This document shows, piece after piece, positions 10,047-61,900 of a stretch of 64,000 bases of DNA. Both the position numbers and the translations under genes were made by a program. Within the stretch, counting starts at the first letter, position 1, and every line of letters begins with the position of its first letter. The DNA comes from a virus (lineage: Duplodnaviria; Caudoviricetes): IMG/VR virus record IMGVR_UViG_3300032038_000045, positions 25,174-89,173 of that record; one strand, given 5' to 3'. The notes under the pieces were generated by a model. The model was not told where the DNA came from. It saw nothing but the letters and a program-made list of their open reading frames with translations, and did not search any database.

Positions 10047-10964
10047 ATGAATAAAACTACTTATACAACTGTTGAAAGGATTATAGCAAAAATTGATAAT
10101 GACTTTAATCCTAACAATAGTGATTGGATACCTCGAGTTGGTGCTTGGTGTATAGATGCTATGCACCAACTTGATGTTACAATGACAAGTAAAGTTAAGA
10201 AAAAACTTCTTGTTAAAGATAGAGTTGCAAGAAGTGAATGTTGTCTTTCAGACCTTGATCTTACTGTTTATGATGAAAACGGTTGTATAGTTCCTAAAGC
10301 AGGTAGTAAAAGTGGTTGTTGTGGAGCAGCAAATAATGGCTCTATGCAATCTCCCTCTACGGGGAAAGAAGAATTAGTTTCTGGTAATACTCTTTATACT
10401 ATTGACGATAATAGTAGAAATGGTGAAGATGGAGGAGCAGAAACAATGCTTCATCATATGAGAACTCATAGAACAGTTGAACTCGAATATACAAATAGAG
10501 AAGAAACTGTTGATATGCGTGCCCAAAGAATTAATCACAAAGATTATCCTGCTCGATACAATGTTGTTGAGATTTATAAAGGTGGAGGAAGTCAAGGTAG
10601 AAACTATGTAGTTTCTGGAGGATACACTCTTGAACTCAACTATGATGCTGATTATGTTTATATTGAATATGATACTATAGATACAGTAAAAGGAATGGAT
10701 GGAGTTGAATATCCAGTTATTCCTAACAATGGAAAACTTATTGAAGCCATTGTTTATTATTGTATGTATAAAATGCTTTGTAGAGGTTATAAACATCCTG
10801 TATTTAATCTTGCTGCATCTCAATATGGAACAAATCCTTATTATATTTGGATGAATACTAAAGATGAAGCTAAAAGAAGTGTTATTAATGATGGCATAAA
10901 TGAAGATGTATCTAAGTTGTTTAGGAGCAGCTTATTTATATCAACCTTTTATCCTCGTGGATAG
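10047..10964 (+). CDS. tail tubular/ring protein (P22 gp4-like, crAss Ttub)
   Basis: 305 aa directly upstream of the stabilisation gene; helical ends with a low-complexity insert. Confidence 0.6.
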   Translation: MNKTTYTTVERIIAKIDNDFNPNNSDWIPRVGAWCIDAMHQLDVTMTSKVKKKLLVKDRVARSECCLSDLDLTVYDENGCIVPKAGSKSGCCGAANNGSMQSPSTGKEELVSGNTLYTIDDNSRNGEDGGAETMLHHMRTHRTVELEYTNREETVDMRAQRINHKDYPARYNVVEIYKGGGSQGRNYVVSGGYTLELNYDADYVYIEYDTIDTVKGMDGVEYPVIPNNGKLIEAIVYYCMYKMLCRGYKHPVFNLAASQYGTNPYYIWMNTKDEAKRSVINDGINEDVSKLFRSSLFISTFYPRG

Positions 10965-11079
10965 TTGTTTTAGCCTCTACAATCCATTCTTATATTTGAG
11001 TGGAACAAGGATTCATCTTGAAGATTTGAGTGCGTTGTAGGGGCTAATTTTTATCAAAATTTCCTAATAATTTTCAATT
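10957..11079 (+). repeat. ~120-bp intergenic element, copy D
   Basis: TTTTAGCCTCTACAATCCATTC...GTTGTAGGGGCT...AAAATTTCCTAATAATTTT; aligns with copies A and E. Confidence 0.8.
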
Positions 11080-14000
11080 ATGCCAGATATAGTTAAAGAA
11101 CTTAATCTTAATAAACATCCTAAAAATTGTAAAGACCTAAGTCTTATTTATGCTAAGAATGTAAGAGTTAGTAATGATTTATCTTGTCTTCAGAGTGAAG
11201 AAAGTATTCTGAAACATGATGATTTGATGAATAAACTTACTCATAAAACAATAGTTGGATATATACCTTGTAATAAGGAAATAGTTTTCGTTACGATAGA
11301 TGGTAACAAACCTGTAATTGGAACTAAAATAAATGCTTATTTAGAAAGATATAACGAATTAGAAAATAGGTGTGAATGTGTTTATACTAAATACAAATAT
11401 TATGGCGGTGAAATAAAAGGCACATTCACTTATAATATAAATGATGAACTTATACTTGCTATTAGTGAGTTCGATTATGATAATAATTTAAATCTCCCTC
11501 TTCATACTATAAATATTGGAAAATGGGATGGAGAAGTTGTAGATGGAGCTTTAGATTATGAAGATTTAACAACTAATCCTAAAGTAAGAATACCTGAAGT
11601 AACAAATTATCAATATGTTGCTGGTACTGCTTATAAAGGTTGGTATCATTTCTTTATTAGATTTAAGATTAATAATAGAGATTATACTAAATGGTTTCCT
11701 TTAGGATTTCCTATTCTTATTGATGAAGTATTTAAAAGTGCAGTTGTTAAATATTTTCAACCTTATGATGATATAAATAGTACTGCAAGGAAAGCAAATG
11801 AAAGGGACGAAAGAATAGATACTGTTTTTGGTGGCGATGCTTATGTTGATACTTCTTCTAAATATGATATATGTTCAAAAACTGTAAATCTTAATATTAA
11901 TTTTAATAGTCAAGATAATAAATCTATTTATCAAATAGGTTTTATTTGTACTACTAAAAAATATACTAAAGCTTTTAAAACTTCAGATATTGAACTGAGT
12001 GATAGACAAACAAATTTTATAGTTAATTTCAATATTCTTGACGAGTATAGTGTTGAAGAATTTTTACTTCAGAACTTTAATTATTATAATGTAAAGAATA
12101 TAATTAATTATAAAAATAAACTCTATATAGCTAATTATAAAGATTCTCTATTTGATTATGAGACTTTAAGTCAATTCGTTAGAAATAATATTCAAATAAA
12201 TCTTACTACTGGCGCAAGTTCTGCAGAACAAGATAGTTATGACACTGAATATGAAACTGAAATAGAAGAACCTGCTTCTGTCGCTGGTTATAGATTGATT
12301 GTTGATGTTACAGTATTTGCAACCAGAGTAAGTGATGGAGTAGAAATTGCTTATAGAAATTTTAAAGCTGATTTATTAAATAGTAAAATATTAGCTAAAG
12401 ATTATCCTCAAGGTGTTTATCCGGAAAATGCAGACTCTTATTGGGATTATGAGGATTATACTGATTTTAGAATAGAGAGTACTTTTACGTTATATGATGA
12501 AAATAATCAAGAGACTCAACTTGGTGGAGATATTGATATAACAGGAGGAACTCAAAGTTTCAATAGTTCTGCTGGTTATTATCCACCTTTAATAGGATTA
12601 GCTGATTATAAAGATTATTATACAACTCCAGCTAATGAATTAAGATGGCAAACTTCTCGTGGTGTTTCTACTCAATATACTTTAACAATAAATGGTACTG
12701 TTAAGAATATACAATTAGATTGTTTCTTTGTTAAAACTGGTGATAAAATAGCACAAGGTATAGGTTGGGGTTTAAAATATTTGAAAAAAATTGATTATGG
12801 TTCATATTATTCGAGTTCAACTGATTATGTTGTAGTAGAACAAAATACTTATAAACCGATTTCTCAAAATACCAATACTAATACTACTATAACTCCTTCC
12901 GCTGATTCTAATTATGATTTTAATTTCTTAAGAAATGCTACTCTTATTCCAGGTGAAACTTATAAAATCTATATTCATTTTGTAAATGATTATGGTGAAA
13001 TTTCTGATGGTATATTTATAAGTGATATAAATGTTCCTAAGAATACCACTGTTGGAGAACTATATAGAATAAGTGCTGTAGTTAATGCTCTTCCTACTAA
13101 CTGTGTTGGATATTTTCTTAGTTATGAAAAACTTCAAAAGAAGAAGAGTTATAGTGGTCTTTTAGTTTACGAAAATAATATTTATAAATTCTTTAGTGGA
13201 GAAGTAGATATATTTGATTCTATTGATTTACAAGGCAATAAAGCTAATATTCTCGGTACTGTTTCTATAGATGATTTAGTAGGAAAAGGTATTGGTCAAA
13301 GTGGTATAGCAATAGATTTGAGTATATTTGAAAATAAATATTATTTTTGGAACAAAGTTGTAGATAATGCCAATTATAACTACCTTGGTTCTATGGATAT
13401 AAAGTCTATAGAATTAATAGCTGCTGATGATTTTAGTAAAGGCAATAATGGCAAAGGTAGTTACTTAAAACTTAACTTTAGTTCAGGTTTTGGATTAACT
13501 CCTGGTCAATATTATATTTGCGATATTTATAACGACAATAGTGGACAATATAAGAATGAAATTAAAACTCTTATTAAATTCACTAATGTAATTTATTCTA
13601 CTGGCTCAAGAACTTTCAATAATGGATATTCTGGCAGAATCACTAAAAATGATATTCTAATTTATAACAAAAATGGTTTTGTCTTAGATTCTTCTATAAA
13701 CACTTTATATACTAATGATTTCTATCCTTATTATAGTTCCTATATTATAGAAGAAAGTGGCAATGCTCGATTTAAGAGAAACTATTTTCAAAGAGAACAT
13801 AACCCTTCTATAGACCTTAGTCCTAATCCAATGTTGCAAGGTAACAATGTTGTTCCTGCTCCTTTAGTTGTTGTTTCTCTATATGAATATTCTGATATTA
13901 TCCTTGAAACTAAACAGATAAATAATGCTCCTCAAAAATATCCATTGAATACTACAGTTCCAAGAGGGGATGAAGATTATGCCACACCAACCTTTGTAAT

Positions 14001-15336: not shown

Positions 15337-15339
15337 AAT

Positions 15340-15870
15340 ATGAAATGTGTTAGTAGAAAAAAGGCTTGGATAGGTGCAGCTATTAGTGCTGCTGCTGGTT
15401 TAGCTAATGCAGCAATTCAAGCAAGACAAAAGAGAAAAGCTCAAGAAGAAGCTCAGAGACAAGCTAATGAAGATGCTATAATGCGGTCTCAAGCTAATTT
15501 GACAGATGCTTATAATAATCAAGACTATTTAGATAATTATTATGATAGAGTTCAGCTTATACCTCAATTCCTTTACGGGGGAAGAAAAAAAGCTACTCTC
15601 GGTACTATAGTTGAAGGTATTGGCAACTTCTTGAAAACTGACAATGGTAGAGAACTTTTAAATAGTGGAATATCTTCTTTAGGTAATATTGCAGGTAGTG
15701 CAATATCTTCTGCTCCAACTACTTCAATTTATTCTCCAAATGCTTTCAAACCCACTGTTAAAACTTCTCTTGTTGATAAAAGTTATAATCTTAATAATTC
15801 TAATATTGAACCTCAGTATTACGATAGGTTTTCGCAAGCCAAGTTTGGTAAGCGAGTAAGAGGATGTTAG
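15340..15870 (+). CDS. small cargo/ejection protein
   Basis: Ala/Gly hydrophobic helix WIGAAISAAAGLANAAI plus coiled coil; follows the muzzle gene. Confidence 0.6.
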   Translation: MKCVSRKKAWIGAAISAAAGLANAAIQARQKRKAQEEAQRQANEDAIMRSQANLTDAYNNQDYLDNYYDRVQLIPQFLYGGRKKATLGTIVEGIGNFLKTDNGRELLNSGISSLGNIAGSAISSAPTTSIYSPNAFKPTVKTSLVDKSYNLNNSNIEPQYYDRFSQAKFGKRVRGC

Positions 15871-15985
15871 AGGCATCTATTTTTACCTACAATGGATTTT
15901 AGTTGTCTGAATGATAACTTGTTAATCTTTGAAATAAAAGTATGTTGTAGAGCCTTATTTTTGATAAAATTTCCTAATAATTTTT
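15868..15985 (+). repeat. ~120-bp intergenic element, copy E
   Basis: 70/112 ungapped identity to copy C by hand alignment. Confidence 0.85.
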
Positions 15986-15992
15986 ATTTTTT

Positions 15993-18341: not shown

Positions 18342-18350
18342 TATATTGCT

Positions 18351-21170
18351 ATGAGATATGTAGATGTAATAAATAGACCTTATGTTCCTGCCGTTAATCT
18401 TGATGTTTTTACAAGAACTCTTGATACTCTTCAGCAAGGACATATTAAAGGTCTTGAACTTAAATCTCAACTCGATACTGCTATTGCTAATCTTGATATG
18501 AACTCCGCCGAAGATGAATTTAAAGCTAATTTAATAAACGGCATTCAAAATGAAGTAAATGCAAGTGCAGAAGATTGGGGTGGAAATATGTATTATGGAA
18601 TTGCTGATTTAATAAAGAAACAAGGTGATATTGCTAAAAATCCTGCTGTAATTGGTAGACTTAAAGCTCAACAAGAATATAAAAAATATCAAGCTCAAAT
18701 TGATGCTCGTCAAGATTTAAGTCAGGATGCTAAAGATTGGGCAAAAGAAAAGAATCCTTATAAATACCAAGATAAGTTTGATGAAAATGGAAAAGTAATT
18801 GGTGGTACTGAATGGACTCCTGATTTTACTCCTGTTGAAAGTAAAGATTTCAATGATATTTTTAAATTAGCTTTAACCTATGCTGCTAAAGAACACGGAG
18901 GAGGTTCAAGTGCTACTTTTGTAGATGCTGATGGAAATCCTACAAAAAATGTCACAGGAGCTATTGCCGTATTGAGTACAACTACTGGTAAATGGGAGCG
19001 TCTTAGCAAAGAAAAAATAGATGCAGCTATTCAAGCTGCTATGAATGCTAATCCTCAATATGAAGCTTCTTTAAAACAAGACTATGAAGTTCTTAAATGG
19101 AAATGGGATAAAGGAGATGAAAATACTTCCTTAAAAGACCCCATTACAGGTCTTCAAAAAAATTATTCTCAATATAAAAGAGATATAATTGACCCGTTTA
19201 TTAGAGCTGCAAGTTATTATAATAGTACTTCTTCTACAAGTTATAATAGTAGTGTACTTGGTGCAGTTGAGGCTGCTCGACAAGCAAGAAGTGGTAAAAG
19301 TGGAAATGGTGGTTCTCAATATGGAGACCCCACTGGACTTCTTCCTTCTGGAGCAGGTTATAATGCTACTATTACTGATGATACTAAGAGTAAGAGTTTT
19401 GTTACTGTAGGAGTAAGTAAGAACAGAGTAAAAGATTATATAAATAAAGTTTCTGATGGAAAGAACATAAATCTTACAGATTTAGATATTCTTGATAGAG
19501 ATTCTTTGAGAACAAGATTAACTTCTGCTGGTTTTAATGATAGTCAAATATCTGATATTTTAAATTATGCTACAAAAGAATATGCTGAAAATAAAGAAGC
19601 TTATGATTTATATGATAGTATAATGAGTGATGGCTCTAAAGCATCTGCTGGACAAATAATGAGATATGTTATAAATAACGGTTTGGTTCTTGATGAAGAT
19701 GAATTGAGTCGTAATTCATATCTTAGAGGATTATATGATGATTATCAAAAGATTGTTAATAATAGATTTTTAGGTGCTGAAAATTATTCTTTTGCAACTA
19801 AGAATAAACAATTATTTGATAATGTTATATCTTCGCTCGGTGTATCTGAAGATGCAATTAGAGAATTAGGATACAATATCGGCAAAGATGGAAATAGATA
19901 TACTATTAGTATTAATAGAGACCATTCTAATTTAATTGGTCAGCTTGAAGGAGCTGTACAAAATGGATATAATTCTTCTTCGAGAGGATATAAATTTAGA
20001 CAACATTTTGCTCGCGCAGTTGGTTCAGGTGATGGCTTCTATGCTTATAACGATGGTGGTAAAAAAGTTTATGCTCAAACTTCCGGTGCAATATCTGAAA
20101 TGGTTTCGAGAGTAAGAGATTTCTTTGATGGTGACATTAATGGATATTATGCGTTAAATCAAGCTAATGTTCAAAATTACAATCAAGGCTCTGAAGAAGC
20201 TGCAAGAACTGTAGCTGGAAATATAGTAAACGCTATTCCAACATTTGTTAGAGAAAATACAAGAATTAGTGGTCTTGCCGGTAATCAAAGTCCTGCTCAA
20301 TATGTAGCTGAAGGCATTGGTATATTGAACGATAGAATGCAGAGAATTGGTGCTCGTAATTTAGCTGATGATGAAAAGGTTATTTCTACTCAAAATTATA
20401 GTGGCATAAGTCCAAGACAAAACTCTGCTTATGAAAATATGCTTAATGCTAAAAGTACTGAACAATATAACTATTGGAAACATATTTATGATGCTGAGAA
20501 TTTAACTATTGACAATTTATTAAATTCTGGTTCTGCTCTAAATACTAATGTTTATAGAATGACTGATGATGGAAATAGAACAAGATTAGATTCTTCTGAA
20601 AAACTTATGCTAAATAAGTTAATAAATGATGAAAAGATAAAGAGAAGCTACAGTATGAATTACAATCCCTATACGGGGGAAGTTACTCCTCAAATTACAT
20701 TAAATATGCCTAATGGATATATTAATCCATTTACTCAAGATGATTCTCCTATTATTTTCACTTCAGATGTTCTAATCAATGATAGAGCTTTACGACAATT
20801 AAATAGGTCTGAAGAATATAAAATATCTTCTCAGCTTTATAGAAATGATTTAAATAATATTAATACTACTATTGGATATTATATTGATGGTGATGGTAAT
20901 CATAACTATGAGCTTACTCCTTCATTTAAATATAATGGTGAATCTTATAGAATGATTATAAATGAAAATGATACTGCATTAGCTATTGTTTCTGAAATTC
21001 AAGCTCAAAATATATTAATGCAATTTAATAATATTAAACAAGAATCTAAAAAACAATATACAGATAAAGAAAAAGAAAACTTTAGAAATACTCTTAAAAA
21101 TAATAAATCACTATTAGAAATTTTTGGTGAAGATGTTTTAACCAAAATGGCGTCTACATATTTTAGCTAA
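18351..21170 (+). CDS. cargo protein, first subunit of the crAss virion RNAP locus
   Basis: 939 aa; first of three consecutive giant genes characteristic of Crassvirales. Confidence 0.7.
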   Translation: MRYVDVINRPYVPAVNLDVFTRTLDTLQQGHIKGLELKSQLDTAIANLDMNSAEDEFKANLINGIQNEVNASAEDWGGNMYYGIADLIKKQGDIAKNPAVIGRLKAQQEYKKYQAQIDARQDLSQDAKDWAKEKNPYKYQDKFDENGKVIGGTEWTPDFTPVESKDFNDIFKLALTYAAKEHGGGSSATFVDADGNPTKNVTGAIAVLSTTTGKWERLSKEKIDAAIQAAMNANPQYEASLKQDYEVLKWKWDKGDENTSLKDPITGLQKNYSQYKRDIIDPFIRAASYYNSTSSTSYNSSVLGAVEAARQARSGKSGNGGSQYGDPTGLLPSGAGYNATITDDTKSKSFVTVGVSKNRVKDYINKVSDGKNINLTDLDILDRDSLRTRLTSAGFNDSQISDILNYATKEYAENKEAYDLYDSIMSDGSKASAGQIMRYVINNGLVLDEDELSRNSYLRGLYDDYQKIVNNRFLGAENYSFATKNKQLFDNVISSLGVSEDAIRELGYNIGKDGNRYTISINRDHSNLIGQLEGAVQNGYNSSSRGYKFRQHFARAVGSGDGFYAYNDGGKKVYAQTSGAISEMVSRVRDFFDGDINGYYALNQANVQNYNQGSEEAARTVAGNIVNAIPTFVRENTRISGLAGNQSPAQYVAEGIGILNDRMQRIGARNLADDEKVISTQNYSGISPRQNSAYENMLNAKSTEQYNYWKHIYDAENLTIDNLLNSGSALNTNVYRMTDDGNRTRLDSSEKLMLNKLINDEKIKRSYSMNYNPYTGEVTPQITLNMPNGYINPFTQDDSPIIFTSDVLINDRALRQLNRSEEYKISSQLYRNDLNNINTTIGYYIDGDGNHNYELTPSFKYNGESYRMIINENDTALAIVSEIQAQNILMQFNNIKQESKKQYTDKEKENFRNTLKNNKSLLEIFGEDVLTKMASTYFS

Positions 21171-24100: not shown

Positions 24101-27100
24101 TCTTAGTCTTTTTGATGAAGAAGGTGAACTTCCTCAGAGAATAACTGAAGAAGAAAAGAAGATTATTGATGATTTTCAACAAGAGCGATTACTTACTAAT
24201 GGTGATGATATTCCTTTCATTACTTCTTATAATGCAGTTGAAGAAATAATTAAAACTCATAAAACTCTTTGGCAGAACACTGTTAAAGATGGAGTTGGAA
24301 GTAAAGCTTATACAGAATTTATAGAATTAGTTAAAGATTATATGATTGTTAATCTTAATAATTCTAAAGCTGTAGCTGATAAATATGCTGAACTTGGCTT
24401 AAGATTGTTTGTCGATAGAATCAGTAATGCTGGTAAAAATGCTTCTACTCCTCAAGGTAAAAAACTTAAAGAGTTTTTCAATGCTATAACTGAAGCTTTA
24501 GGTTTTAATTCTGAAACTGGTGATAGTAGGTATGAAGGTTTATCTGAAGAAGAAGCTCAGAGTAAGAAAGATGAATCTATTAGAAATGTCTTTGAACAAT
24601 TTATAAAATATTCTGGAGTTAAACATTCTATTGTTGATGGTAGAAAAGTTATAGATGTTGCAGATTTATTCTTAGAAATGTCTAAAACTTTTGATGACAA
24701 TAATAGAGATTATATATCTATTTTATATCTTTATAATGATATTTCTAATTTCATAAATGGATATAGAGGAACAGAATATTTATTCTTAAATAGAGGTCTT
24801 CTTTCTTTGAAGCATGAAGAATTTATAGATGCTCTTAATAAAAAGAGAACTGAAGTAAAAACTGTTTCTCCTTTTATGCACTTTAGTTCTACTTTAAATA
24901 GTAAAACTAATTCTTCAATGCAAGGTTTAAATGATGCTACTAAAATTAAAATTCTTCAACAAGCAAGAGACAAAGGTGTTACATTAAGTATAACTCGTAC
25001 ATCTAAAGGAGACCCTGTTTCTATAGCTTTCAATGTTAAATATAATGGTAAAACTTATGAATTGGGTATGTTGTCTCTTGTTGAAGGTAGTAAAGATAAT
25101 AATACTTTAACAAGTAAATACCAAGGTTTAGATATAAGTTTAACTAAGAATAATGATGGTTCTATATCCTCTTCTGAAGATTATTTATTTGATGGTATAT
25201 TAAACAATTCTGAATTATATAACTATATTGCTTCTTGGTTTAGTACTGAAAAAGCTCATTTGTTTAATGGTAATACTTCTCAATCTGCTCTCCTTGCTTT
25301 ACAAAAAATTCAATTTAATAGTAAACTTGATATTTTATCAAATCCTACTATTAAAAGATATATTGATGAACATGATTTAGAAAATCAATATAAAAAATCT
25401 AATTCTAAAAAGTCTTTTAAAGACTATGTTTTAGGAAAGATTACAGATATTGTTTTCTATGATATGTATTCTAAAGATACTACTCCTGGAGCTGTAGATA
25501 GTAAATTGAGTAATTTAATTACTAAATTTGGTATTAGAGAAAGCATAGAAAGATTCAAAGAAAAACAGTATGATAATTTCTCTCAAACTAAAGCTCTTTA
25601 TGATAAATTAGAATCTGGTGAAGAAGTAAATGCTGTATATAAGAGTGATGATGTTGGAAGTATAAGATATGATAGAACAAGAACTAAGAGTACTAATAGA
25701 CTTGGTATTGCCAATGAAACCGAACAACATCCTATAATCTATTATGATGGAAGTAAAGGTATTGATGAAAATGGTAAAATATATGCCAATATACCAGGTC
25801 TTTCTATTGGTACTATAGGTATTGTAATGGGTGAAAATCAAGGAGAATATTATATAAACGAAAATGGTGAAAAAGTTAATTCTCCTGGTGCTAATTTAGC
25901 TCTTATAACTGGAGGTAATAAAATACTTTCCAACAACAATAAATTAAATAGAGAACTTTATGATGCCCTTAAGGGTGAAATGAATTCTATAATAAATGAT
26001 TATTATGATGTTATACAAAACAATAATGCTACTTTAGCTCAAAAGAATGCAGCTTATGAAAGATTGTATAATAGATTAAATGATTTATTTGGTAATTCTG
26101 AAAATAAATTATTCTCTAATTTTATTGTTGGTAAAGGTAAAGATGTTATAGGAATTTCTACTTACATTGATGGTCAATATATTCCAGTTCTTAAAGTTTT
26201 CAAATATAAATCTTTGACTTTTGATAATGGAGTTAGAAGAAGAAATGGAAGAATAGTTGAAGGTGAAGAACTTAATCAATATTTTGGTGGAGGTTTTGCT
26301 ATAACTGTTCCTGGTGGAACTCATTATAATCAATTTAGTAATAAGAGTGAAGCTCAACAAAAGAGAATTGGAGAATTAATTGATTATATAGCTGATAATG
26401 TTGAATTTAATACAACAAGATTTGCTGTAACTAATGCAAATAATCAAAATACTCAAACTTCTCACATTAAGAAAGTTGATGGTAATATTGAAATAGAAGT
26501 TGGTTCTTTTAAACATCAATTTGACAATTTTGCTCAAGCTGTAGTTAGACTTAATATGTTTAATACAAGTCAAATTGGTACTTCTAATAGACGATATGAT
26601 TATGTTGATAAATATGGTAATCCTAAACTTCCTAAGAGTTTCTTCTTACAAATAAACGATACTGTAGCTCCTATTTCAGAACAAGAAAAAGAAGAACAAC
26701 TTGGTCTTAAAGGTTGGATTGATAGAAACAATATAGAGGAAAATGAAGAAGTAGTTTTTGAAGATGTTCTTTATGCTTCTGGTTTTAATAGTGATGTAGT
26801 TGAATCTATCAAAGATTTTAATGATTTCCTTGAAAAGAATAGTTATCCATTATTTATTAAACCTATAGTATTACTTAATGGTAATCTTAGTAGAGAAGAA
26901 AATGGTGTAACATATGAACCATTTGGTAGATATGACGGAAAGAATATTCTTCTTGGTAGAAAAGCTGCAACTTTAAAACAAAAAGAAAGTATACTTCGTA
27001 TTCTCGTTCACGAGAATATTCACAGAGTTGTAGATGAAACTAAATTCTTTGATGGAGAAGTTGGTCAAAACAGAATTAATGAAATAAATGATATATTTGA

Positions 27101-27734
27101 TATTTTCTATGATGAATTATCAAGAGATAAAACTTCTGATAGAAATGTAAAAAGACTTAAAGAAAAGTTTAAACAATTCAAGAGTGATTATAAAGACAAA
27201 GCTGTTATTGCTAATGAATTTATGGCTGAAGTAATGTCTGATGCTGGTCTTAGAAATTATATGAATACTATTGAGATTGAAATTGAGCAAAATAAAGGTC
27301 AATCCCTTCTTCAAAGAATATTTGATTTCATAGCTAAACTGTTTGGTATAGATGTAAAAGATAATAGCTTACTTTCTCAGTTTAGAAATGCTCTTAGAGA
27401 TATAGACGCATCTGCTTCTACTGAAAGTATTAAAGAACAACCTGAAAATCCTAACTCCCCCGTAGAGGGAGATGCACAGTCTGGTGACGATACTGATTTT
27501 GGAGATATGACTAATGAAATAGGTCTTGAAGATATAGAATTTGATTCTCGTTATGAAGGTCTTACTTCTGAAGAAATAGTTATGGAAAGTTTAGATGAAG
27601 ATAAAACTGATAACATTTTCGGTGTCAATATGGCTAACGATATGCAGACGTATTTGCAGCAGTTACCAAGTAGTCAAAGACCTGAGATGGCCTCTGCGAT
27701 TGACTCTAATGAATTGAACTATCTTTGTCGATAA
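21180..27734 (+). CDS. giant cargo protein with zincin metallopeptidase motif (virion RNAP locus)
   Basis: 2184 aa; HENIH (HExxH) at 27009-27023 with downstream NEFMAE; Gly-rich N-terminal helices. Confidence 0.75.
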   Translation: MTPEERQEHLHHVTSILGADVNSSAPLTVSYSDGRTDELVSNTLRQAGVVGNTEAFSINKDLYDKYAKYGIIPNAAASQEDLDRERAEKQSAINQFGNMLGQAVVNEVLLGTIRGFSDIFDAAYSIAKNDDNDYTNAVSTQIEDWQNYIRDEVLPIYQRENDGGFHINDFGWWMNGAVSTATTLSLMLPGLGISKGVSLLGKVGNVGSKVGKLGYKITKAGAKLVGAEAKAGMAFETLKGGLEIGGMAFISRTAENYQEARETYNTVLEKTKDKLSSMKDEEREKFLKINPEFADLSDDEIAEAIASNSAGKTFLNDYWMLLMDIPQFKTLSSIWKGAGIANKATTRGIRKANAEAINRLVGKGLSEEAATEVSKTFAQRLGSAFSIENLGKTAKNVWTGTEGLMLSEGIEEGFQGIQSQRGEEYGELYFNPHLQRKTLGQYLNDETIWEQAFWGVMGGLLFQGGAKAFRRLEDKARAKIKSKDLSEIDIKALQLGEDKSRIAEIYGRFDKMDDYKEKMGLINNGKNPYSVKKDSKGQDVLVDGKRQYDDIQSTEEVEQLKTLATKDFLTNLVISAANNGNYDLLKEFVSNKEFAQYFKDSGVNTDELLESQLISKMDDIYNKYQTAYYETIDNTDAYNEHITRLVASEIARDELTLEEVQDRIDDLNAQIADRELSNQSHYEQIAKQRVIHQKLEAIDAAINKINEKKNDRNTFYSKQAFDKEYKDLQRQKDYLYRELERTNSNFNYSGVLSESLEDTLQAASELYNSFVLDNTDTTAFENLSQTTQRNLYSKAAYEVFRDELQRDLPNSDNLKQYYTDKYDEKLAMFIDIANSKFAHAYDKVYNYIKRSDNPYEAIQHLLKDDIVAEDGYSAREISQLNDALDVLRFGSQDREAFNNALMFMVVGEQGKRKREQQESEEVKVEDKKVNPAVAEKVTGIKPEEAPSPSTGQQGVNPESPVREDSTTERLDDTGLSLFDEEGELPQRITEEEKKIIDDFQQERLLTNGDDIPFITSYNAVEEIIKTHKTLWQNTVKDGVGSKAYTEFIELVKDYMIVNLNNSKAVADKYAELGLRLFVDRISNAGKNASTPQGKKLKEFFNAITEALGFNSETGDSRYEGLSEEEAQSKKDESIRNVFEQFIKYSGVKHSIVDGRKVIDVADLFLEMSKTFDDNNRDYISILYLYNDISNFINGYRGTEYLFLNRGLLSLKHEEFIDALNKKRTEVKTVSPFMHFSSTLNSKTNSSMQGLNDATKIKILQQARDKGVTLSITRTSKGDPVSIAFNVKYNGKTYELGMLSLVEGSKDNNTLTSKYQGLDISLTKNNDGSISSSEDYLFDGILNNSELYNYIASWFSTEKAHLFNGNTSQSALLALQKIQFNSKLDILSNPTIKRYIDEHDLENQYKKSNSKKSFKDYVLGKITDIVFYDMYSKDTTPGAVDSKLSNLITKFGIRESIERFKEKQYDNFSQTKALYDKLESGEEVNAVYKSDDVGSIRYDRTRTKSTNRLGIANETEQHPIIYYDGSKGIDENGKIYANIPGLSIGTIGIVMGENQGEYYINENGEKVNSPGANLALITGGNKILSNNNKLNRELYDALKGEMNSIINDYYDVIQNNNATLAQKNAAYERLYNRLNDLFGNSENKLFSNFIVGKGKDVIGISTYIDGQYIPVLKVFKYKSLTFDNGVRRRNGRIVEGEELNQYFGGGFAITVPGGTHYNQFSNKSEAQQKRIGELIDYIADNVEFNTTRFAVTNANNQNTQTSHIKKVDGNIEIEVGSFKHQFDNFAQAVVRLNMFNTSQIGTSNRRYDYVDKYGNPKLPKSFFLQINDTVAPISEQEKEEQLGLKGWIDRNNIEENEEVVFEDVLYASGFNSDVVESIKDFNDFLEKNSYPLFIKPIVLLNGNLSREENGVTYEPFGRYDGKNILLGRKAATLKQKESILRILVHENIHRVVDETKFFDGEVGQNRINEINDIFDIFYDELSRDKTSDRNVKRLKEKFKQFKSDYKDKAVIANEFMAEVMSDAGLRNYMNTIEIEIEQNKGQSLLQRIFDFIAKLFGIDVKDNSLLSQFRNALRDIDASASTESIKEQPENPNSPVEGDAQSGDDTDFGDMTNEIGLEDIEFDSRYEGLTSEEIVMESLDEDKTDNIFGVNMANDMQTYLQQLPSSQRPEMASAIDSNELNYLCR

Positions 27735-27808
27735 CTTCTTCATCTTTTAAAATTAAGTCCATTATAGGGGCTGAAAACGCCCCTATTTTGGAAAATATTA
27801 GCAAATTT
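27685..27808 (+). repeat. ~120-bp element, copy F, overlapping the 3' end of the 2184-aa gene
   Basis: AATGAATTGAA shared with C, GATAACTT.TT.ATCTTT shared with E, TAGGGGCT shared with D, AAAATATTAGCAAAT shared with A and B. Confidence 0.75.
27764..27789 (+). terminator. intrinsic terminator-like hairpin
   Basis: ATAGGGGC-tgaaaac-GCCCCTAT followed by TTT, between the two largest genes. Confidence 0.5.
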
Positions 27809-27863
27809 AATTAATGCAATATAGAGTGTTTATATTGCTAAAACTTATAAACATTTAATCAAT

Positions 27864-41106: not shown

Positions 41107-41157
41107 AAAAAAAAGGCGTACTACCGGAATGTTCCGAATAGTACGCCTTTGTTGTTT
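41107..41157. terminator. bidirectional intrinsic terminator at the convergence point
   Basis: AAAGGCGTACTA (41112-41123) / TAGTACGCCTTT (41139-41150); A-run before and T-rich run after. Confidence 0.85.
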
Positions 41158-41170: not shown

Positions 41171-41294
41171 CTTTGCTATCCCTTTTAGCTTGTAATCAAT
41201 TCAAATTGCTTAGATGAACAACTTATCATCTTTTTATCAAAACTTCGTCAGAGAGCCTAATTTTGAGTCAAAATTGAAAAATATTAGCAAATTT
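41171..41294 (+). repeat. ~120-bp intergenic element, copy A
   Basis: 81/122 ungapped identity to copy B by hand alignment. Confidence 0.85.
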
Positions 41295-41322
41295 ACACTC
41301 AAACAACTTTATTGCTAATATC

Positions 41323-41544
41323 TTAATCAATTACTTTAACAGGAAAATCAGGTTCTCCTTCTATATCATCATAAGAGCAATTTAAGATGTTTACAGTATT
41401 ATCTCCTTTGTCTTTAAGAGTAATATCTTTAAAATACCATACAACATCTTTACCATCATTAGTTTTTAAATTGGCAGAATAAGTTGCTCTACTCCAATCA
41501 TCAAGACGAACAAATTTGAGTTTTTCTCTTTTAATTGTTCTCAT
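41323..41544 (-). CDS. hypothetical protein
   Basis: 73-aa ORF abutting dUTPase. Confidence 0.6.
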   Translation of the reverse strand: MRTIKREKLKFVRLDDWSRATYSANLKTNDGKDVVWYFKDITLKDKGDNTVNILNCSYDDIEGEPDFPVKVID

Positions 41545-47514: not shown

Positions 47515-48212
47515 ATTAATATAAACTTTATTATATTTTTTATATGATAAAATAAATTAGCTTCTTTAACAAGTCTACCAATTTTATCTCGTTCAACCAA
47601 ATCTAATGGAATATCATAATCACTCGGCAACCTATTGTCAGTCGGATTAATTATTATTCCCCCGTAAGAGAAGTATTTCTTAAACTCAAGAAATTCTTGT
47701 AGTTTATTAATTCCTTTAACAATACAAATTCTATTTATAAAAGAAATATCACTTATCTTTCTAAAATGTTTATATAAATCAGCTTTACCAAAATTTATAC
47801 GAAGTACAGTTTCATATATTTCTTTCAAGTCTTTAATCTTTAATACAGGATTTCTAATAGAATCAATTAATAATCTTTTACAATCATCTGGTGTTTTAAC
47901 ATCATCAGCATATACTATATCATTCAATATAGTTATTTCTATATCATCTATTATTCTATGTTCTTGAAAGTTATACCATCTATTTCTTCTAATATGTTTT
48001 TCTTCAAAACCAAAAACATCAAGAAATATCCTCTCTCTTTCTTTATTTATATCATAAATTCTTCTATTAATAGAAGATATATTTCCACTTTTATCAAATA
48101 AGTAATTATTATATGTTGCAGCAGTATATCCTTTAGTATAAATATAATTAACCATATTTATTATATCAGTATCATCATTTACTACTATTATTTGATAGTC
48201 TTGCATACACAA
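47511..48212 (-). CDS. hypothetical protein (ATG at 48206 is the likely start)
   Basis: 233-aa ORF; track start is TTG. Confidence 0.65.
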   Translation of the reverse strand: MCMQDYQIIVVNDDTDIINMVNYIYTKGYTAATYNNYLFDKSGNISSINRRIYDINKERERIFLDVFGFEEKHIRRNRWYNFQEHRIIDDIEITILNDIVYADDVKTPDDCKRLLIDSIRNPVLKIKDLKEIYETVLRINFGKADLYKHFRKISDISFINRICIVKGINKLQEFLEFKKYFSYGGIIINPTDNRLPSDYDIPLDLVERDKIGRLVKEANLFYHIKNIIKFILI

Positions 48213-48241
48213 ATATAATAATTTTTCTGAAATAATAAAAT

Positions 48242-48359
48242 AAAAAATCTTAGCAAATTTTAATGAATTTCCGGCTTTCTAACGCATTCAATTTTTGAAG
48301 TTGAGCGAGTCTTCATCTTTAATATTTCAATTCATTGTGAATAGAAATAGATGGCAAAG
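48242..48359 (-). repeat. ~120-bp intergenic element, copy C
   Basis: CTTTGCCATC start as in A and B; ungapped alignment to E. Confidence 0.85.
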
Positions 48360-48397
48360 AGAAGAAATAAGGGAGCAAATTATCACAACTTGCTCCC
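48357..48397 (-). terminator. intrinsic terminator
   Basis: GGGAGCAA/TTGCTCCC stem with U-rich tail on - strand, immediately after the 48402 stop. Confidence 0.75.
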
Positions 48398-53403: not shown

Positions 53404-53441
53404 AAATTTTAAATTTAAAATTTTTTGTTAAAATATGATAT

Positions 53442-53486
53442 AAAATATGGGTGCTAATCTATTTGTATATTTAAGATTAGCACCCA
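53442..53486 (-). terminator. intrinsic terminator
   Basis: 12-bp stem GGGTGCTAATCT/AGATTAGCACCC. Confidence 0.8.
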
Positions 53487-53511
53487 CTTTATAATTGCGC
53501 CAAAATGTTAA

Positions 53512-54279
53512 TTATTCGGCTTCTTTCTGACCACGAGGAGAAACCTTGGCATCAACAAATTCCTTAGAAAGCGGAAGAGCGGAAACCTCAACAGTTTCAT
53601 ATCCGTTGAAAACAGGAACAGTAGTCATAGCAGCAAGGTCGATAGGATAGGTACGAGCAGTGGAAACTTTTTCCTCTTTACGAAGACCTTCCTTCAGAAT
53701 ATTCCAAATGTTAGAATCAGTGAAATTAAGAACGACACCAGTACCAATCATATCAGAAGAATTGGAGCACTTGCTACCAAGATACTTATCAACCTCAGCG
53801 GAATAGTTAGCAGCAAGAATTTCAATCTTCTCGTCATCACCGAGACCCTCAGCGGAGAGAGCATCAACAAGTTCAGCATCGTTGGAGTTCAGAGCAGCCT
53901 CAAGAGCATCCTGATAGTTAGCACGAATAAGAGCAACCTTTTCATCCTTGCTCATACGCTGAGTAACGGTAAGACCAATACCCTTCTCAGAATAAGCGCG
54001 AATACCCTTAGCGATAGCCCACTGACCATATTCAGCGATAGCAGCTTCGACAGATTCAAATTCGGGAAGCTGACCAGCAGCGAAAGCCTGAGCAATAGCA
54101 TCGTGATTGTTAACGAACATCACATAATCACCATTGGCAATACCAAGAGCCTTGCTAACTTGAGGGGTGATACGGAAGCCACCATGAGTGCTCAGAGCAA
54201 CAAGTTCAGGGTCGTAAGCAGCTTTACGCTGACCAGACATAACAACACCGAATCCGAATTTAAGTCCATTAGTTTCCAT
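53512..54279 (-). CDS. probably highly expressed protein with AbrB-like N-terminal DNA-binding motif
   Basis: GGFRITPQVSKALGIANGDYVMFV fits the AbrB/SpoVT pattern; GC-richer codon use than neighbours. Confidence 0.55.
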   Translation of the reverse strand: METNGLKFGFGVVMSGQRKAAYDPELVALSTHGGFRITPQVSKALGIANGDYVMFVNNHDAIAQAFAAGQLPEFESVEAAIAEYGQWAIAKGIRAYSEKGIGLTVTQRMSKDEKVALIRANYQDALEAALNSNDAELVDALSAEGLGDDEKIEILAANYSAEVDKYLGSKCSNSSDMIGTGVVLNFTDSNIWNILKEGLRKEEKVSTARTYPIDLAAMTTVPVFNGYETVEVSALPLSKEFVDAKVSPRGQKEAE

Positions 54280-54349
54280 AATGATTTTGATTTAAAAAGT
54301 TAAACTGTAAAATTATTACTTTGTTTGAGTGTAAGTTCACTTGGTTTAA

Positions 54350-55315: not shown

Positions 55316-55346
55316 ATTTCAAAGAACTTGTTTGGATTTGCTTTAA

Positions 55347-55377
55347 CAAATATAGGTAATTAAATTGAAACTACAAA
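55347..55377 (-). promoter_or_regulatory. Bacteroidota sigma-70-type promoter
   Basis: On - strand TTTG, 19-nt spacer, TATATTTG (TAnnTTTG consensus), upstream of the RecT-like gene. Confidence 0.65.
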
Positions 55378-56747
55378 ATAATATCTCCGGAAATTTCATC
55401 AATCTTCATATTTTTTGTGAAGTTTTCGTTATGTACCGCTATAAGAGTATTTTCTCTTTCTCGCATCATAGCTCTTTCTTCAGAAGTATTTTCGCAATAA
55501 ATCTTGTACATAATTAGAGGAGTAGGTAATTTAATCTTATCAAATTTGTTTTTAAATGCAAATATATTACTAAGAAAGGGAGTAGTATAAATAAGAATAT
55601 CAGCTTCAGTTTTTATAGAGTTATCAGAACTTCCTTTCATTATTAATACATTGCAATAATTAGCATTAAATAGTTTAACATTATTATTAGATAAAGCAGC
55701 AGATTTAAATATCTTAGGTTCTCCTTTATGTTCACCATTTTTATAACATACTACTTCACCATTTTTATCAGTTAAATAAGAATCTTCTAATTCATTATGA
55801 TAACCTACATTGTTTATATCATTATCAAATAAATATTTTGAAAGTTTATTACAAAATTCTCCTCTTTCACATACTACAATTATTTTCTTATTAGCATGAT
55901 TATTAATTATATCTTTTATAATTTCAAGTTTAGCATTATTATCTGTTAAAAGCTTTTTTCTAAGATGTGTAATATTGAAAATAGTATTAACTCTTTCTCT
56001 AATTGCTATAGGATTAAAAACAGCATCTAATTGTTTATTATATTCAACACTCATATCAAGATGAGAATCCCAACCATTAAATTTAGCTACTTCAATACAA
56101 CAATCCATAGCACTCATTTGTCTAATTGGGTCACCAACTCTACATCTATCAATAGTATTGAAATCATTAAATAAACGCATACTATCTTTTACATAATTTT
56201 CATATTTATCATATTGTTCTCTATCATCTTTATTAAGATAAGCACAACATCTATATTCCTCTACGGGGGAATAAATAGAGTTTCTAATAAGATTTTGTTG
56301 AGTATTTCTTTTTTCAGTTAAATCTATACAAGGAACAATTTCCTTAATCTTATTTATAAAAGTATTATCAAGTTCATTTTTAGTAAAGATAAATAAAGCA
56401 AATTTACATTTACGTCCATAATCTGTTAGAGTTCCAATATGTTTATTTAATCCAACAGTTATAACACAATCAAAACTTTGTTTAATAGTATCTTTGTATT
56501 TAAATGTAACTACTCTTAAATTATCCTTATATTTATCTTTGAAAGAATTTGTTTTTACAAGATTTTCCCAATCTACAACAAATAGAAGTATTTTAATATT
56601 AGGTCGTTTTTCAACTAATTTAGCAATTATTTCTTCTACGAGAATATAAGGGTTTAGTGGGGGTTCGATATAACAATATCCTCTACCTTTATTTCTTTGA
56701 AAAGCCCCATTCAACTCTTCACTTATTTTAAGATATGCGTTATTCAT
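55371..56747 (-). CDS. SF2/SNF2-like helicase fold with degenerate catalytic motifs
   Basis: C-terminal RecA2-like features (K...I..II, IIVVCE, GYHN, F) but no GKT or DExx visible. Confidence 0.55.
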   Translation of the reverse strand: MNNAYLKISEELNGAFQRNKGRGYCYIEPPLNPYILVEEIIAKLVEKRPNIKILLFVVDWENLVKTNSFKDKYKDNLRVVTFKYKDTIKQSFDCVITVGLNKHIGTLTDYGRKCKFALFIFTKNELDNTFINKIKEIVPCIDLTEKRNTQQNLIRNSIYSPVEEYRCCAYLNKDDREQYDKYENYVKDSMRLFNDFNTIDRCRVGDPIRQMSAMDCCIEVAKFNGWDSHLDMSVEYNKQLDAVFNPIAIRERVNTIFNITHLRKKLLTDNNAKLEIIKDIINNHANKKIIVVCERGEFCNKLSKYLFDNDINNVGYHNELEDSYLTDKNGEVVCYKNGEHKGEPKIFKSAALSNNNVKLFNANYCNVLIMKGSSDNSIKTEADILIYTTPFLSNIFAFKNKFDKIKLPTPLIMYKIYCENTSEERAMMRERENTLIAVHNENFTKNMKIDEISGDIIL

Positions 56748-56748
56748 T

Positions 56749-59001: not shown

Positions 59002-60457
59002 AACTTAATATTAATTCTTTTCTTGTTCTACTACACGCAACATAAAGTCTTCTTAGCATTTCTTCATAATCAGCATACATTTGTCCAGTAGAGGTAAAAA
59101 TCATATCATTTAAGTCTACAAAAACATTCTCATAGGTAGAACCTTGACTTTTGTGGCTGGTGATTGCAAAAGCATAATCAATATCTCTACTATAAAGAAT
59201 TTGAGAACCTTTCTTTATATTAGTTAATATAAGATATTGTTTTTTAAAATCATAATATGCTTTCCACCTATTAGCTCTAACTCCACCTGTAGCTGTTTTA
59301 GCATCAGATATTAGATTTTGTATAACTTCTATATATTTTAATATAGTATATTTATCTCTATGGTCTATAACAAATATAGGTTTAGTAATAGTTCCTCCAT
59401 TTACTTTTTGGAATTTTACAAGGAAACCTTTAAAGTTATAATTAGGTTCAACATAATTGACTAAATCCTTAATAATATATTCTTCACTATTGTTAAGAAT
59501 AATATCATTAAATTCGTCAACTGTTGTTTCATAACTCATAACCAAATCGTTCTTTGTAAGAATATTCTTATTAGCATCTTCTATAATAATATTTCTTATA
59601 AAATTATTCCAAGAAGTAACACAAACATTTGTATAAGCAATAAGTTTATACATTTCTATATTTTTAGTATATTCTTCATCATTGAATCTTACACTAACTA
59701 AATTAGAAAATTGTTGAGCACCAACTATAGAAAATCCTTCTCCAAGTTCATTATAATTAGATACTCCAATATGTTTTGAAATATAATTTATAAACTTATG
59801 AGACTTGTATTTTATATCTTCTCTTAAATAATCGAGAAGTAATAAAGTTGGATTAGTTTCTTGTTGTCTAACAATTTCAGTTAATTCATAAACTTTATTG
59901 CATTTAATAAAAGCTGTACTTTTGTGTTCCCTTACGGGGGAAAGTTGAGCATTATCTCCAATGAAAAGAAGCTTAATATTATGTTCCCTACATTTATTAA
60001 TAATATAAGTAACAAGAGAAGCATTTAACATAGAAGCTTCATCACATATTAATAATTCTATATTTTGTAACTTTGGAGTAGAAATAGGAGTAAATGCTGG
60101 ATTATTATAATCAAAATCTTCTATATTAAGATTTAATCTAAAACCAAAAGTAGATTGAATTGTTTCAACTTTAAGACCTACAGAATTACTGAAAACTCTA
60201 CAAGCTTTATGAGTTGGAGAACAACACTTTATAGCAGAAAGAGCTAAATTACATTTACTTACAACAAATTTTGTAACAAATGTTTTACCTACTCCACCAG
60301 CTCCTATAAGACCGTATACGCTTTTACTTTCATCATATGGAGAATTTATGAATTCTACTAAACCTTCAACAGCTCTTGTTTGACCATTTGTTAATGTAAT
60401 AGATTGTTTATTTTCAGTTCTACCTTTACCAACTATATTATAATTAAATTCCTCCAT
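58991..60457 (-). CDS. SF1 (Dda/RecD-like) DNA helicase
   Basis: GAGGVGKT, DEASM, IGDNAQL, EIVRQ, HKSQGSTY, YVACSR. Confidence 0.92.
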   Translation of the reverse strand: MEEFNYNIVGKGRTENKQSITLTNGQTRAVEGLVEFINSPYDESKSVYGLIGAGGVGKTFVTKFVVSKCNLALSAIKCCSPTHKACRVFSNSVGLKVETIQSTFGFRLNLNIEDFDYNNPAFTPISTPKLQNIELLICDEASMLNASLVTYIINKCREHNIKLLFIGDNAQLSPVREHKSTAFIKCNKVYELTEIVRQQETNPTLLLLDYLREDIKYKSHKFINYISKHIGVSNYNELGEGFSIVGAQQFSNLVSVRFNDEEYTKNIEMYKLIAYTNVCVTSWNNFIRNIIIEDANKNILTKNDLVMSYETTVDEFNDIILNNSEEYIIKDLVNYVEPNYNFKGFLVKFQKVNGGTITKPIFVIDHRDKYTILKYIEVIQNLISDAKTATGGVRANRWKAYYDFKKQYLILTNIKKGSQILYSRDIDYAFAITSHKSQGSTYENVFVDLNDMIFTSTGQMYADYEEMLRRLYVACSRTRKELILSFGR

Positions 60458-60989
60458 TTTTATATTTCTCTATTACAGGTTTATATAATTCATAATTTTT
60501 AATATAATCTTTAATAGAATCTTTACAAGCTTGATGTTTCCAATCAGTTTTAGTATCTTTTAAATCAAATAAAATAATTCCCGTAACATTATTTTTAACA
60601 AGATTTCCTTTACATAAAACACCAGCCATAAAAGGCATATAAATATTATCATTATATTTCTTGTCTCCTCTTTTTAAATAATTAATTTCGTTAACAGAAA
60701 TAAATTTATTATTTATAATACAAGTACTATATTTAGGTTTATCACTTTTAATAAAATAAGAATCATTAGTAAATTTATAAAAACAATTTTCTAATGTTAA
60801 AGTAACAAAATTAATAGGAACAACATACCATAATTTTTCTAAATCAAAAAAGCAAACTGCGACTACATTTTTTTCAACAACAGTATAAAGTTTTTCTTTT
60901 ATAGTTTTAGTTTGTTTTTTAACTTTATTAAACCCCGAAGGTTTAAATGAAAAACTAATAGCCATAACAATAATATTTATAGTGCTCAC
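60444..60989 (-). CDS. hypothetical protein (ATG at 60965 is the likely start)
   Basis: 181-aa ORF; track start is GTG inside a hairpin. Confidence 0.6.
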   Translation of the reverse strand: MSTINIIVMAISFSFKPSGFNKVKKQTKTIKEKLYTVVEKNVVAVCFFDLEKLWYVVPINFVTLTLENCFYKFTNDSYFIKSDKPKYSTCIINNKFISVNEINYLKRGDKKYNDNIYMPFMAGVLCKGNLVKNNVTGIILFDLKDTKTDWKHQACKDSIKDYIKNYELYKPVIEKYKNGGI

Positions 60990-61036
60990 TTCGTTCGCAC
61001 ACCTTCCCCGTAAAGGGATGATGCAGCATTAGCTTT

Positions 61037-61504
61037 TTATTGAAGATTATTAAACAATAATTCAGCAGTTTCTCTACTATATTTATTAAATAGTAATCTC
61101 CAACGACCATTAACTTTTTCAGCAAATATTACAGGTTTAATATTTGTAAAATCATATTTTAAACCTTGTGCAGCAAATTTATTGGATAAGAATTTATCAT
61201 CTATATCTTCATAGAATTTTTGTATTATTTTATTATCATCTTGATTAGTATCAACATATAGCCCAACACCAGTATTTATATATTGCAGTGCGTCATCGGC
61301 GATATTAGTTATATATGCTAAACTTATAAATACTTTTCTAATTCTATGTTTATCTTCTTCATAGAAATTAGTATTATTGCAACCGTTATTATAAAATTTA
61401 ATTTCTCTTGAATAATTGCATATACAAGTTAAATTTCCAAAACTTAAAGCATGAGCACATTTAACACAAGTTAATGTTCTTTCTTTAACATTAAAATCAA
61501 ACAT
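61037..61504 (-). CDS. hypothetical protein with Cys cluster (CxxC...CxC...C)
   Basis: CVKCAH...CICNY...GC, possible Zn binding. Confidence 0.55.
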   Translation of the reverse strand: MFDFNVKERTLTCVKCAHALSFGNLTCICNYSREIKFYNNGCNNTNFYEEDKHRIRKVFISLAYITNIADDALQYINTGVGLYVDTNQDDNKIIQKFYEDIDDKFLSNKFAAQGLKYDFTNIKPVIFAEKVNGRWRLLFNKYSRETAELLFNNLQ

Positions 61505-61778
61505 TGTTTTGGTTCATTAAGTTTACTATTTTATAAAATTCTTCTTTTGCATCTTTAGAACTTTCACAATATATAGCAATATTTAATCCACCTTCCATAT
61601 TTACAAAAATACAATCTGGTTCTATTAAATTTTCTTTATCAAAAACATCATCTTTTTCTATATGTCCACCATCAGATTGCTTTTTTAATAAACTATTATG
61701 AATTAATCCACAATGAATAATCTTTGAAATTCTAATAGCAGTTCTTGAATTTTTAGAAACATAAATTGCGTCTTTCAT
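61497..61778 (-). CDS. hypothetical protein
   Basis: 93-aa ORF starting directly after the 120-bp element. Confidence 0.6.
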   Translation of the reverse strand: MKDAIYVSKNSRTAIRISKIIHCGLIHNSLLKKQSDGGHIEKDDVFDKENLIEPDCIFVNMEGGLNIAIYCESSKDAKEEFYKIVNLMNQNNV

Positions 61779-61900
61779 ATTTGCTAATATTTTTTAAATT
61801 TTATACGATTTTAAGCCTTCTGAGGCACTTTCATTTTTCAGACGATAAATTGTGTAGCTTTGATATTATAATGCAACAGACGCAGAAATGGATAGCAAAG
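61779..61900 (-). repeat. ~120-bp intergenic element, copy B
   Basis: CTTTGCTATCC...ACAATTTATCGTCT...CAGAAGGCTTAA...AAAATATTAGCAAAT. Confidence 0.85.

Follow-up and report, generated by a model that had tools for sequence, protein, structure and literature searches.

A 64,000-nucleotide stretch of the IMG/VR virus record IMGVR_UViG_3300032038_000045 (positions 25,174 to 89,173 of that record; hereafter, the window), which belongs to a crAss-like phage whose complete 89,173-bp genome has direct terminal repeats, carries six copies of an approximately 120-bp element at its gene junctions. Sequence comparisons indicate that these copies are a real, selected family, with further members at gene junctions of prototype crAssphage, and that their most likely role is to end one transcript and to initiate or regulate the following one. 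Each copy is coupled to a terminator, the element supplying its own where a separate one is missing. We consider it about evenly balanced whether the element is a terminator-linked re-initiation cassette, that is, a phage-specific promoter/operator region.

Six copies and their positional orthologues

The closest named relatives of the window phage are Intestiviridae (cr3_1 and Carjivirus communis), with only 26–33% amino acid identity in the large cargo protein. Its virion genes form a plus-strand block that ends in a giant protein of 4405 amino acids (aa) and converges at ~41.1 kb on a minus-strand replication block. The copies were labelled A (10957), B (15868), C (27685), D (41171), E (48242, minus) and F (61779, minus):

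10957–11079, plus strand: copy A, from the stop of a 305-aa gene to the ATG of a 1418-aa (P22 gp10-like) gene
15868–15989, plus strand: copy B, from the stop codon of a 176-aa gene to 3 nt short of the ATG of a 782-aa lysozyme-domain gene
27685–27808, plus strand: copy C, its opening 50 nt being the final codons of a 2184-aa gene (stop at 27732–27734)
41171–41294, plus strand: copy D, with no downstream gene on the same strand, facing the stop of a 73-aa minus-strand gene (41323–41544)
48242–48359, minus strand: copy E, downstream of a terminator at 48371–48397, without an internal stem
61779–61900, minus strand: copy F, following a terminator at 61921–61950, downstream of tRNA-Gln, and reaching to the ATG of a 93-aa gene, the first of the helicase/DNA polymerase block

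These positions and strands had been proposed in a sequence-only reading of the window and were borne out by leave-one-out nhmmer searches, in which a five-copy profile recovered the sixth copy at E values of 6.7 × 10−9 to 1.5 × 10−13 (64-kb window). Apart from the copies' own reverse strands, which the profile matches weakly because of a dyad between the 5′ part of the element and a downstream block (block 4, see below), no other window match fell below about E = 1 × 10−4, and a profile search of the whole 89,173-bp genome found no seventh copy. Alignment of the six needs a single 2-nt indel; paralogous copies are 50–66% identical, and pairwise identities (0.66 for D versus F and 0.61 for E versus B) agree with the earlier hand alignments. 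Five copies point into a downstream gene, as had also been claimed, and finish at or just before its start codon; D instead faces the 3′ end of the converging operon.

A profile search of relatives, which the same reading had suggested, recovered members in metagenomic crAss-like phages (giant protein 48–58% identical and 176-aa protein 40–93% identical to those of the window phage), in cr3_1 and in prototype crAssphage. Copies A and B are orthologous in L004/L005, copy A being confined to the lineage of the window phage, L004 and L005. Orthologues of copy B lie in cr3_1 (L010 15450–15546) and upstream of gp47 in prototype crAssphage (L022 11497–11620); those of copy C in L006/L007 (E = 2.6 × 10−10), L008 and L009; those of copy D in L008 (24469–24583, E = 3.7 × 10−8) and L009; and those of copy E in L008, in L009 and ahead of gp26 in prototype crAssphage, all three repeating the order terminator, element, promoter box. 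The orthologue of copy F in the L008 phage (L076 1922–2015, E = 2.8 × 10−4) likewise sits behind tRNA-Gln and a hairpin. An extended profile added crAssphage copies upstream of gp38 and gp10 (E = 4.6 × 10−5 and 8.9 × 10−5 before inclusion), so that prototype crAssphage has at least four copies (upstream of gp47, gp26, gp38 and gp10), and blocks of the family were recognized by eye at its gp12 junction, the equivalent of F. Junction length is held across these phages (122, 119, 116 and 120 nt for B across genera; 129, 125, 125, 126, 130 and 130 nt for C in six phages). Other searches were less productive: blastn of one copy against 50,697 phage records gave no match, a search of IMG/VR with the 176-aa protein found nothing, and a covariance model built on sequence alone (R1) lacked sensitivity at genus distance, several coding-region matches being discarded.

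The family is thus old, positionally fixed and not mobile, and a selfish or recombinational repeat (a mobile element resembling a miniature inverted-repeat transposable element (MITE), a Tn3-type res site, or a gene-shuffling cassette of the promoter-early stem-loop (PeSL) type) is highly improbable. Some features would suit such a repeat: copy A is lineage-limited, a 19-nt 3′ module is identical between copies A and B, from which it follows that new copies can arise by duplication, and the B junction is missing in one relative (L074). Set against these are the orthologous positions kept across genera as far as prototype crAssphage, the low identity of the paralogues, the lack of consistent terminal inverted repeats (a 7-nt TTTGCTA end pairing occurs in D and F only) and the scattered single chance matches that were all a core-pattern scan of 185,579 species genomes returned. 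The non-autonomous mobile element and the multi-subsite recombination site, both options of the sequence-only reading, were therefore rejected, the former on its positional orthologues across genera, in phages with giant proteins 48–58% identical (target-site duplications were not specifically sought), and the latter on positional orthology to prototype crAssphage, the dispersal of the six sites at gene junctions and the absence of a resolvase (PF00239) from the complete genome. In the L009 phage, 3 nt separate a 103-aa gene and a 1362-aa lysozyme-domain gene (L074 1835–1839), so the B cassette is dispensable or was lost in that lineage. Core-pattern scans of viral contigs (one chance match) and of genome contigs (the species-genome scan above: 45 scattered single matches, with no true elements or CRISPR-like arrays) led us to drop a CRISPR-repeat mimic or host-derived motif.

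The elements are under purifying selection, with junctions conserved like, or above, their flanking genes: junction DNA is 77% identical at C (55–61% for flanking coding DNA), 69% at B (57–75%) and 63% at E (54–72%), leaving aside L004, which at 97% identity is too close to show selection. Mean identity is 0.54 among paralogues within a genome and 0.52 among positional orthologues, against a background of 0.455; copies in crAssphage have common words that are missing from those of the window phage, and vice versa. Since paralogues are as alike as orthologues, each genome has its own dialect, which would be the expected pattern for cis-sites that co-evolve with a genome-encoded reader, or for gene conversion.

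Terminator coupling

A separate hairpin with a T run stands upstream of D, E and F, in agreement with the earlier claim that three copies (41171, 48242 and 61779) directly follow an intrinsic terminator, and terminator hairpins are internal to A, B and C. The separate hairpins are:

41112–41150, no strand assigned: terminator hairpin 3′ of the giant gene, 20 nt upstream of copy D (−25.6 kcal/mol, z-score −8.2)
48371–48397, minus strand: intrinsic terminator of the 115-aa gene upstream of copy E (z −4.75)
61921–61950, minus strand: terminator hairpin and T run upstream of copy F (z −3.6)

The first of these could end both converging operons, because an A run and a T run flank it. The remaining copies have a terminator of their own, formed either as a long-range stem in which a 5′ arm pairs with block 4 (RAGRGCC) or as a local hairpin; in most cases a T run comes next. 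In copy A, closing arms at 10970–10983 and 11034–11047 precede a T run (−31.8 kcal/mol, z −5.1), confirming the long-range inverted pair that had been noticed there, and the stem shows compensatory changes in L004/L005; in copy B, the closing stem (15887–15893 and 15944–15950) is likewise followed by a T run. The long-range stems of A and B run into TAATTTTT / TTATTTTT. In copy C, block 4 serves as the 5′ arm of a local terminator hairpin (27764–27786, then TATTTT; z −3.1) in place of the long-range stem. As whole elements, A, B and C are more stable than their shuffles (z −2 to −4.8), whereas the folding of D, E and F is no better than that of shuffles (z about 0; −0.5 for D, which has no internal stem). 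A G+C-rich hairpin followed by a T/U run was found at the copies of the window phage only.

Across eight gene-abutting copies from three genera, the region just 5′ of a conserved TGAATT pairs with block 4 in a 10-bp closing stem, with double changes at 6 of the 10 pairs; 80.8% of cells are paired (33–49% with the partner slid) and covariation is 0.479, compared with 0.11–0.19 in slid controls and unmatched by any of 500 shuffles. Where a separate terminator precedes the copy (nine copies), pairing of these columns is at chance (2–5 of 10), and copies without one have 7–10 of 10, except B of L005 (2 of 10, with its stem in another register); the two groups differ (Mann–Whitney, p = 0.003), the stem-bearing copies having been picked after inspection. 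Being confined to copies with no separate terminator, the stem behaves as a terminator substitute and not as a family-wide RNA fold. A compensatory TTCTG/CAGAA versus TTCTA/TAGAA change, described from the sequence alone, stood in part: the pair exists, and the register of its host copies pairs at chance (5/10).

These folds bear on whether the elements act as RNA. Each could be an intercistronic leader, reached by read-through of a leaky terminator and serving as an unstructured site for a phage translational regulator or nuclease, with the long stems of the compact copies as processing or stabilizing hairpins, like the RNase III sites between T7 genes. Most copies do end at or within 8 nt of a start codon, all are co-oriented with genes, the distance from the element's core to the ATG is roughly constant (about 80–90 nt), and the closing stem has G-U-tolerant compensatory changes. 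We nevertheless regard an RNA-level element as unlikely, given that RNAalifold found 0 pairs common to the six copies and thus no family-wide fold, that D, E and F are at z about 0 behind strong terminators, that copy D has no downstream gene, and that a canonical promoter lies between element and gene at the E junction, so that the main mRNA would exclude the element. The structured leader RNA of the sequence-only reading fared accordingly, holding for the covarying closing stem of copies without a separate terminator and failing for the post-terminator copies. A structured cis-regulatory RNA family of the Rfam type was rejected for want of a consensus fold common to all members; as had been suggested, Rfam was searched, and the elements gave no match at gathering thresholds or at E ≤ 1, three tRNAs and two unrelated weak matches being all that was returned. 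Phage T7 intercistronic RNase III hairpins and, in cluster K mycobacteriophages, start-associated sequences (SAS) and extended SAS (ESAS) are dispersed conserved intergenic elements at gene starts. The T7 sites share one fold, whereas the present family has none in common, and SAS are 13-bp words, compared with which the present elements are far longer.

Promoter likeness and candidate functions

From 5′ to 3′, the element consists of a T-rich/GC block, 6–8 nt, TGAATT, 4 nt, a TA-box (TAT....G), 2–3 nt and a core, which opens with TGAT(A/T)AA, often has a short dyad (GAT...ATC; in crAssphage, GATTAATC) and is followed by block 4 (RAGRGCC, then A/T). A terminal AT-rich 17-nt module, which usually reaches the start codon, is forward in A, B and E and reverse-complemented in C, D and F; by eye, its orientation in relatives is likewise reversed at the C and D junctions and forward at the E junction. 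The host-type promoter consensus of Bacteroidetes is a −33 TTTG and a −7 TAnnTTTG. The promoter-like unit of the element, conserved across three genera, resembles it in the order and orientation of the T-rich/G block and the TA-box, and has the exact TAnnTTTG at the conserved column in 2 of the 6 window copies (10991–10998 in A, within the hairpin loop, and 27720 in C), the two sense boxes that had been pointed out before; it differs in a spacing 1–3 nt shorter, in a −7 TTT that is mostly replaced and in the conserved TGAATT within the spacer. E-type copies and copy F of L076 have the exact box adjacent to the ATG. In copy E it lies just outside the element (48210–48217), 3 nt short of the start codon (ATG, 48206) of a 231-aa gene, which implies a leaderless mRNA; the position of this gene, and its position alone, is equivalent to that of the deoxynucleoside monophosphate (dNMP) kinase genes of crAssphage (gp26) and cr3_1.

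Promoters with the canonical TTTG-N19/20-TAnnTTTG are few in this genome: 48210–48217 (−) and 55347–55377 (−) in the window and, in genome coordinates, 9444–9474, 18871–18902 and 18978–19008 (+) and 2905–2935 (−), with two in tandem before a 431-aa gene at genome position 19052. The 327-nt gap that holds two canonical promoters also has a partial, weak match to the centre of the element on both strands (E about 0.07; genome 18836–18892, window −6337 to −6281), which may be a degenerate relative. A scan for the sigma-70 consensus showed no enrichment over shuffles. By eye, a sigma-54 reading of the TGGC block was rejected for wrong spacing, the consensus of integration host factor (IHF) was not matched, and a conserved micro-open reading frame was rejected, frames and start codons varying between copies.

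Another parallel comes from the crAss-like phage phi14:2, in which mapped middle promoters have an extended tripartite motif read by the host polymerase (Drobysheva et al., bioRxiv 10.1101/2020.03.07.982082). In its genome sequence, these promoters consist of an A-tract and TTG-N20-TAnnTTTG, the box often 4–5 nt before the ATG, and one of them, P070, is at the junction equivalent to that of copy B. The middle/late promoters of phi14:2 and beta-crassvirinae genus VI and the present elements are alike in placing a multi-block motif upstream of virion-cargo, RNA polymerase and other genes. The phi14:2 junctions are, however, about 77 nt long with the canonical motif, whereas the present elements are about 120 nt long with a 17–18-nt spacing, a mostly non-canonical TA-box, the additional blocks 3–5 and terminator coupling, and no sequence homology of the elements to phi14:2 was detected at equivalent junctions.

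Among the four options offered by the sequence-only reading, an extended phage-specific promoter or nucleoprotein site fits best. As a re-initiation cassette, the element would work as follows: the terminator function would end the upstream transcript at the transcription-unit boundary and, behind the terminator or nested in it, the conserved ~100-bp promoter/operator region would control re-initiation into the next gene, read probably by host RNA polymerase together with a putative phage-encoded sequence-specific factor. The T-rich/GC block, TGAATT and TA-box may act as a variant Bacteroidetes −33/−7 promoter, and the core, which differs between genomes and is often dyad-bearing, may act as an operator; the copies are co-oriented with transcription. 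In the compact copies, the terminator would stop upstream read-through but not transcripts started in the loop, from which the 5′ arm would be missing. Two placements of the start could apply equally well. Transcription might begin after the TA-box within the loop, giving an ~80-nt leader that has escaped the hairpin; copy C argues against this, its 5′ half being coding and a terminator following. It might instead begin at the 3′ AT-rich module by the ATG, giving a leaderless mRNA like those of the phi14:2 promoters, in which case the conserved body would serve as an upstream activator site; this second placement has the inverted 3′ modules and copy F against it.

Several points weigh against a re-initiation cassette as a whole. 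Promoter activity is something that we purely infer; most TA-boxes are TAnnAAAG-like rather than TAnnTTTG, the spacing from the TTTT(A)GC block to the TA-box is 17–18 nt compared with 19–20 nt in the genome's canonical promoters, and no recognizable sigma-like protein was found in the genome. The promoter-like half of copy C is coding, a conserved Tyr-x-Cys tail of the protein can account for the TA-box, and a start there would run directly into the local terminator. There is no gene for copy D to drive, a canonical promoter is already present downstream of E-type copies, and a 3′ module found in both orientations would be odd for a core promoter element. On the terminator side, the crAssphage copies have the stem without a T run after it, and the copies compared for pairing are related and hence not statistically independent.

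Copy D and the constancy of length could also be accommodated by a non-transcriptional DNA site, at which a phage DNA-binding protein would dock in an array (for genome organization, for pauses in ejection or packaging, or for replication) and which would merely be tolerated at junctions. Length is kept while sequence diverges into genome-specific dialects, the core often has its short dyad, and copy D sits at a convergent junction with no target gene; such a site is still quite unlikely, because their orientation strictly follows local transcription, they are linked to terminators and start codons, and they lie at junctions that coincide with the mapped phi14:2 promoters. The periodicity of AA/TT is ambivalent, with a weak signal at 9.5–10 bp (z about 3) and the strongest at 13 bp, which is not the helical repeat. 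The strict spacing from which a phased nucleoprotein site had been proposed is upheld across genera, with helical phasing of A-tracts weakly indicated.

Small RNA genes are a further candidate, in which the promoter-like half would drive a short transcript with the core at its 5′ end and the block-4 hairpin at its 3′ end, copy D yielding an antisense RNA against the converging replication operon. The layout of copy C as a seed followed by a terminator (27732–27790) would fit, as would copy D, which is directed at the 3′ end of the minus-strand operon and has a conserved 14-mer behind it. In A and B, by contrast, a start in the loop loses the 5′ arm and no terminator forms, no hairpin follows the core in D, E or F, and the majority of copies run straight into a start codon, making small RNA genes very unlikely. 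The re-initiation cassette may also have a broader form, in which the cassettes would be the cis-signal of a crAssphage-family-wide regulon, with a non-canonical promoter/operator, a putative co-evolving phage reader, a loop-nested promoter and antisense transcription from D. We hold this to be possible, with the balance against it; if it were true, transcription from the orphan copy D at the convergent junction would run antisense into the replication operon, and co-evolution of reader and signal would account for the genome-specific dialects.

Neighbouring signals, known cassettes and implications

Other signals adjoin the elements. The 2184-aa cargo protein overlaps the 5′ half of copy C with its last 16 codons (27685–27734), and its tail (hydrophobic-x-aromatic-x-Cys-x-stop) is kept even in crAssphage and cr3_1, so that coding and element constraints are entangled at this copy. 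Beyond copy C lies what looks like a separate regulatory signal for the giant gene:

27816–27863, plus strand: additional leader sequence separating copy C from the ATG of the 4405-aa giant (virion RNA polymerase-like) gene

This leader consists of a covarying hairpin (27816–27838) and a TTGCTAAAACTTAT-type word, and is kept in L006, L008, L009, cr3_1 and an IMG/VR relative; the word after the hairpin is TTGC(T/C)AAA(A/C)CTTATAA, and the IMG/VR phage that carries it has a giant protein 40% identical. The 14-mer TTACACTCAAACAA has two exact occurrences, one on the 3′ edge of copy D (41293–41306, plus) and one at 54321–54334 (minus), in the 70-nt junction upstream of a gene at 53512–54279; the occurrence adjoining D is exact in L008 and nearly exact in L009. 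GC-rich words of the TCTACGGGGG type adjoin junction elements at ~39180–39230 of L010 (cr3_1) and ~6010–6050 of L026 (crAssphage).

We found no Rfam family and no literature description of the element, a search for a crAssphage intergenic element or promoter returning only the phi14:2 work. The closest concept is the PeSL cassette of T4-type phages, in which a promoter is joined to a terminator stem-loop and of which a genome holds many copies (Arbiol et al. 2010, PMC2839356). The likeness lies in small, dispersed intergenic phage cassettes at gene junctions, the promoter half being inferred for the elements described here. PeSLs have strong canonical sigma-70 promoters, lie in hyperplastic regions, flank variable open reading frames and recombine, whereas the present copies are diverged (50–66% identical), stand at conserved core-gene junctions, mostly lack a canonical promoter and have a long conserved core. 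Gene shuffling of the PeSL type was rejected on the same grounds, the copies being at conserved core-gene junctions in all relatives and not flanking variable accessory open reading frames.

Prototype crAssphage and its relatives are among the most abundant human gut viruses, and we found no account of the timing of gene expression in this group, the one mapped promoter class being that of the distant marine relative phi14:2. The cassettes precede key genes, namely those for the virion RNA polymerase and the cargo/tail proteins, the gene at the dNMP kinase position and the head of the helicase/DNA polymerase block. They thus provide concrete sequences that can now be tested as promoters or operators in cultured Carjivirus communis, a handle for finding the putative reader factor, and candidate parts for the engineering of Bacteroidales phages.

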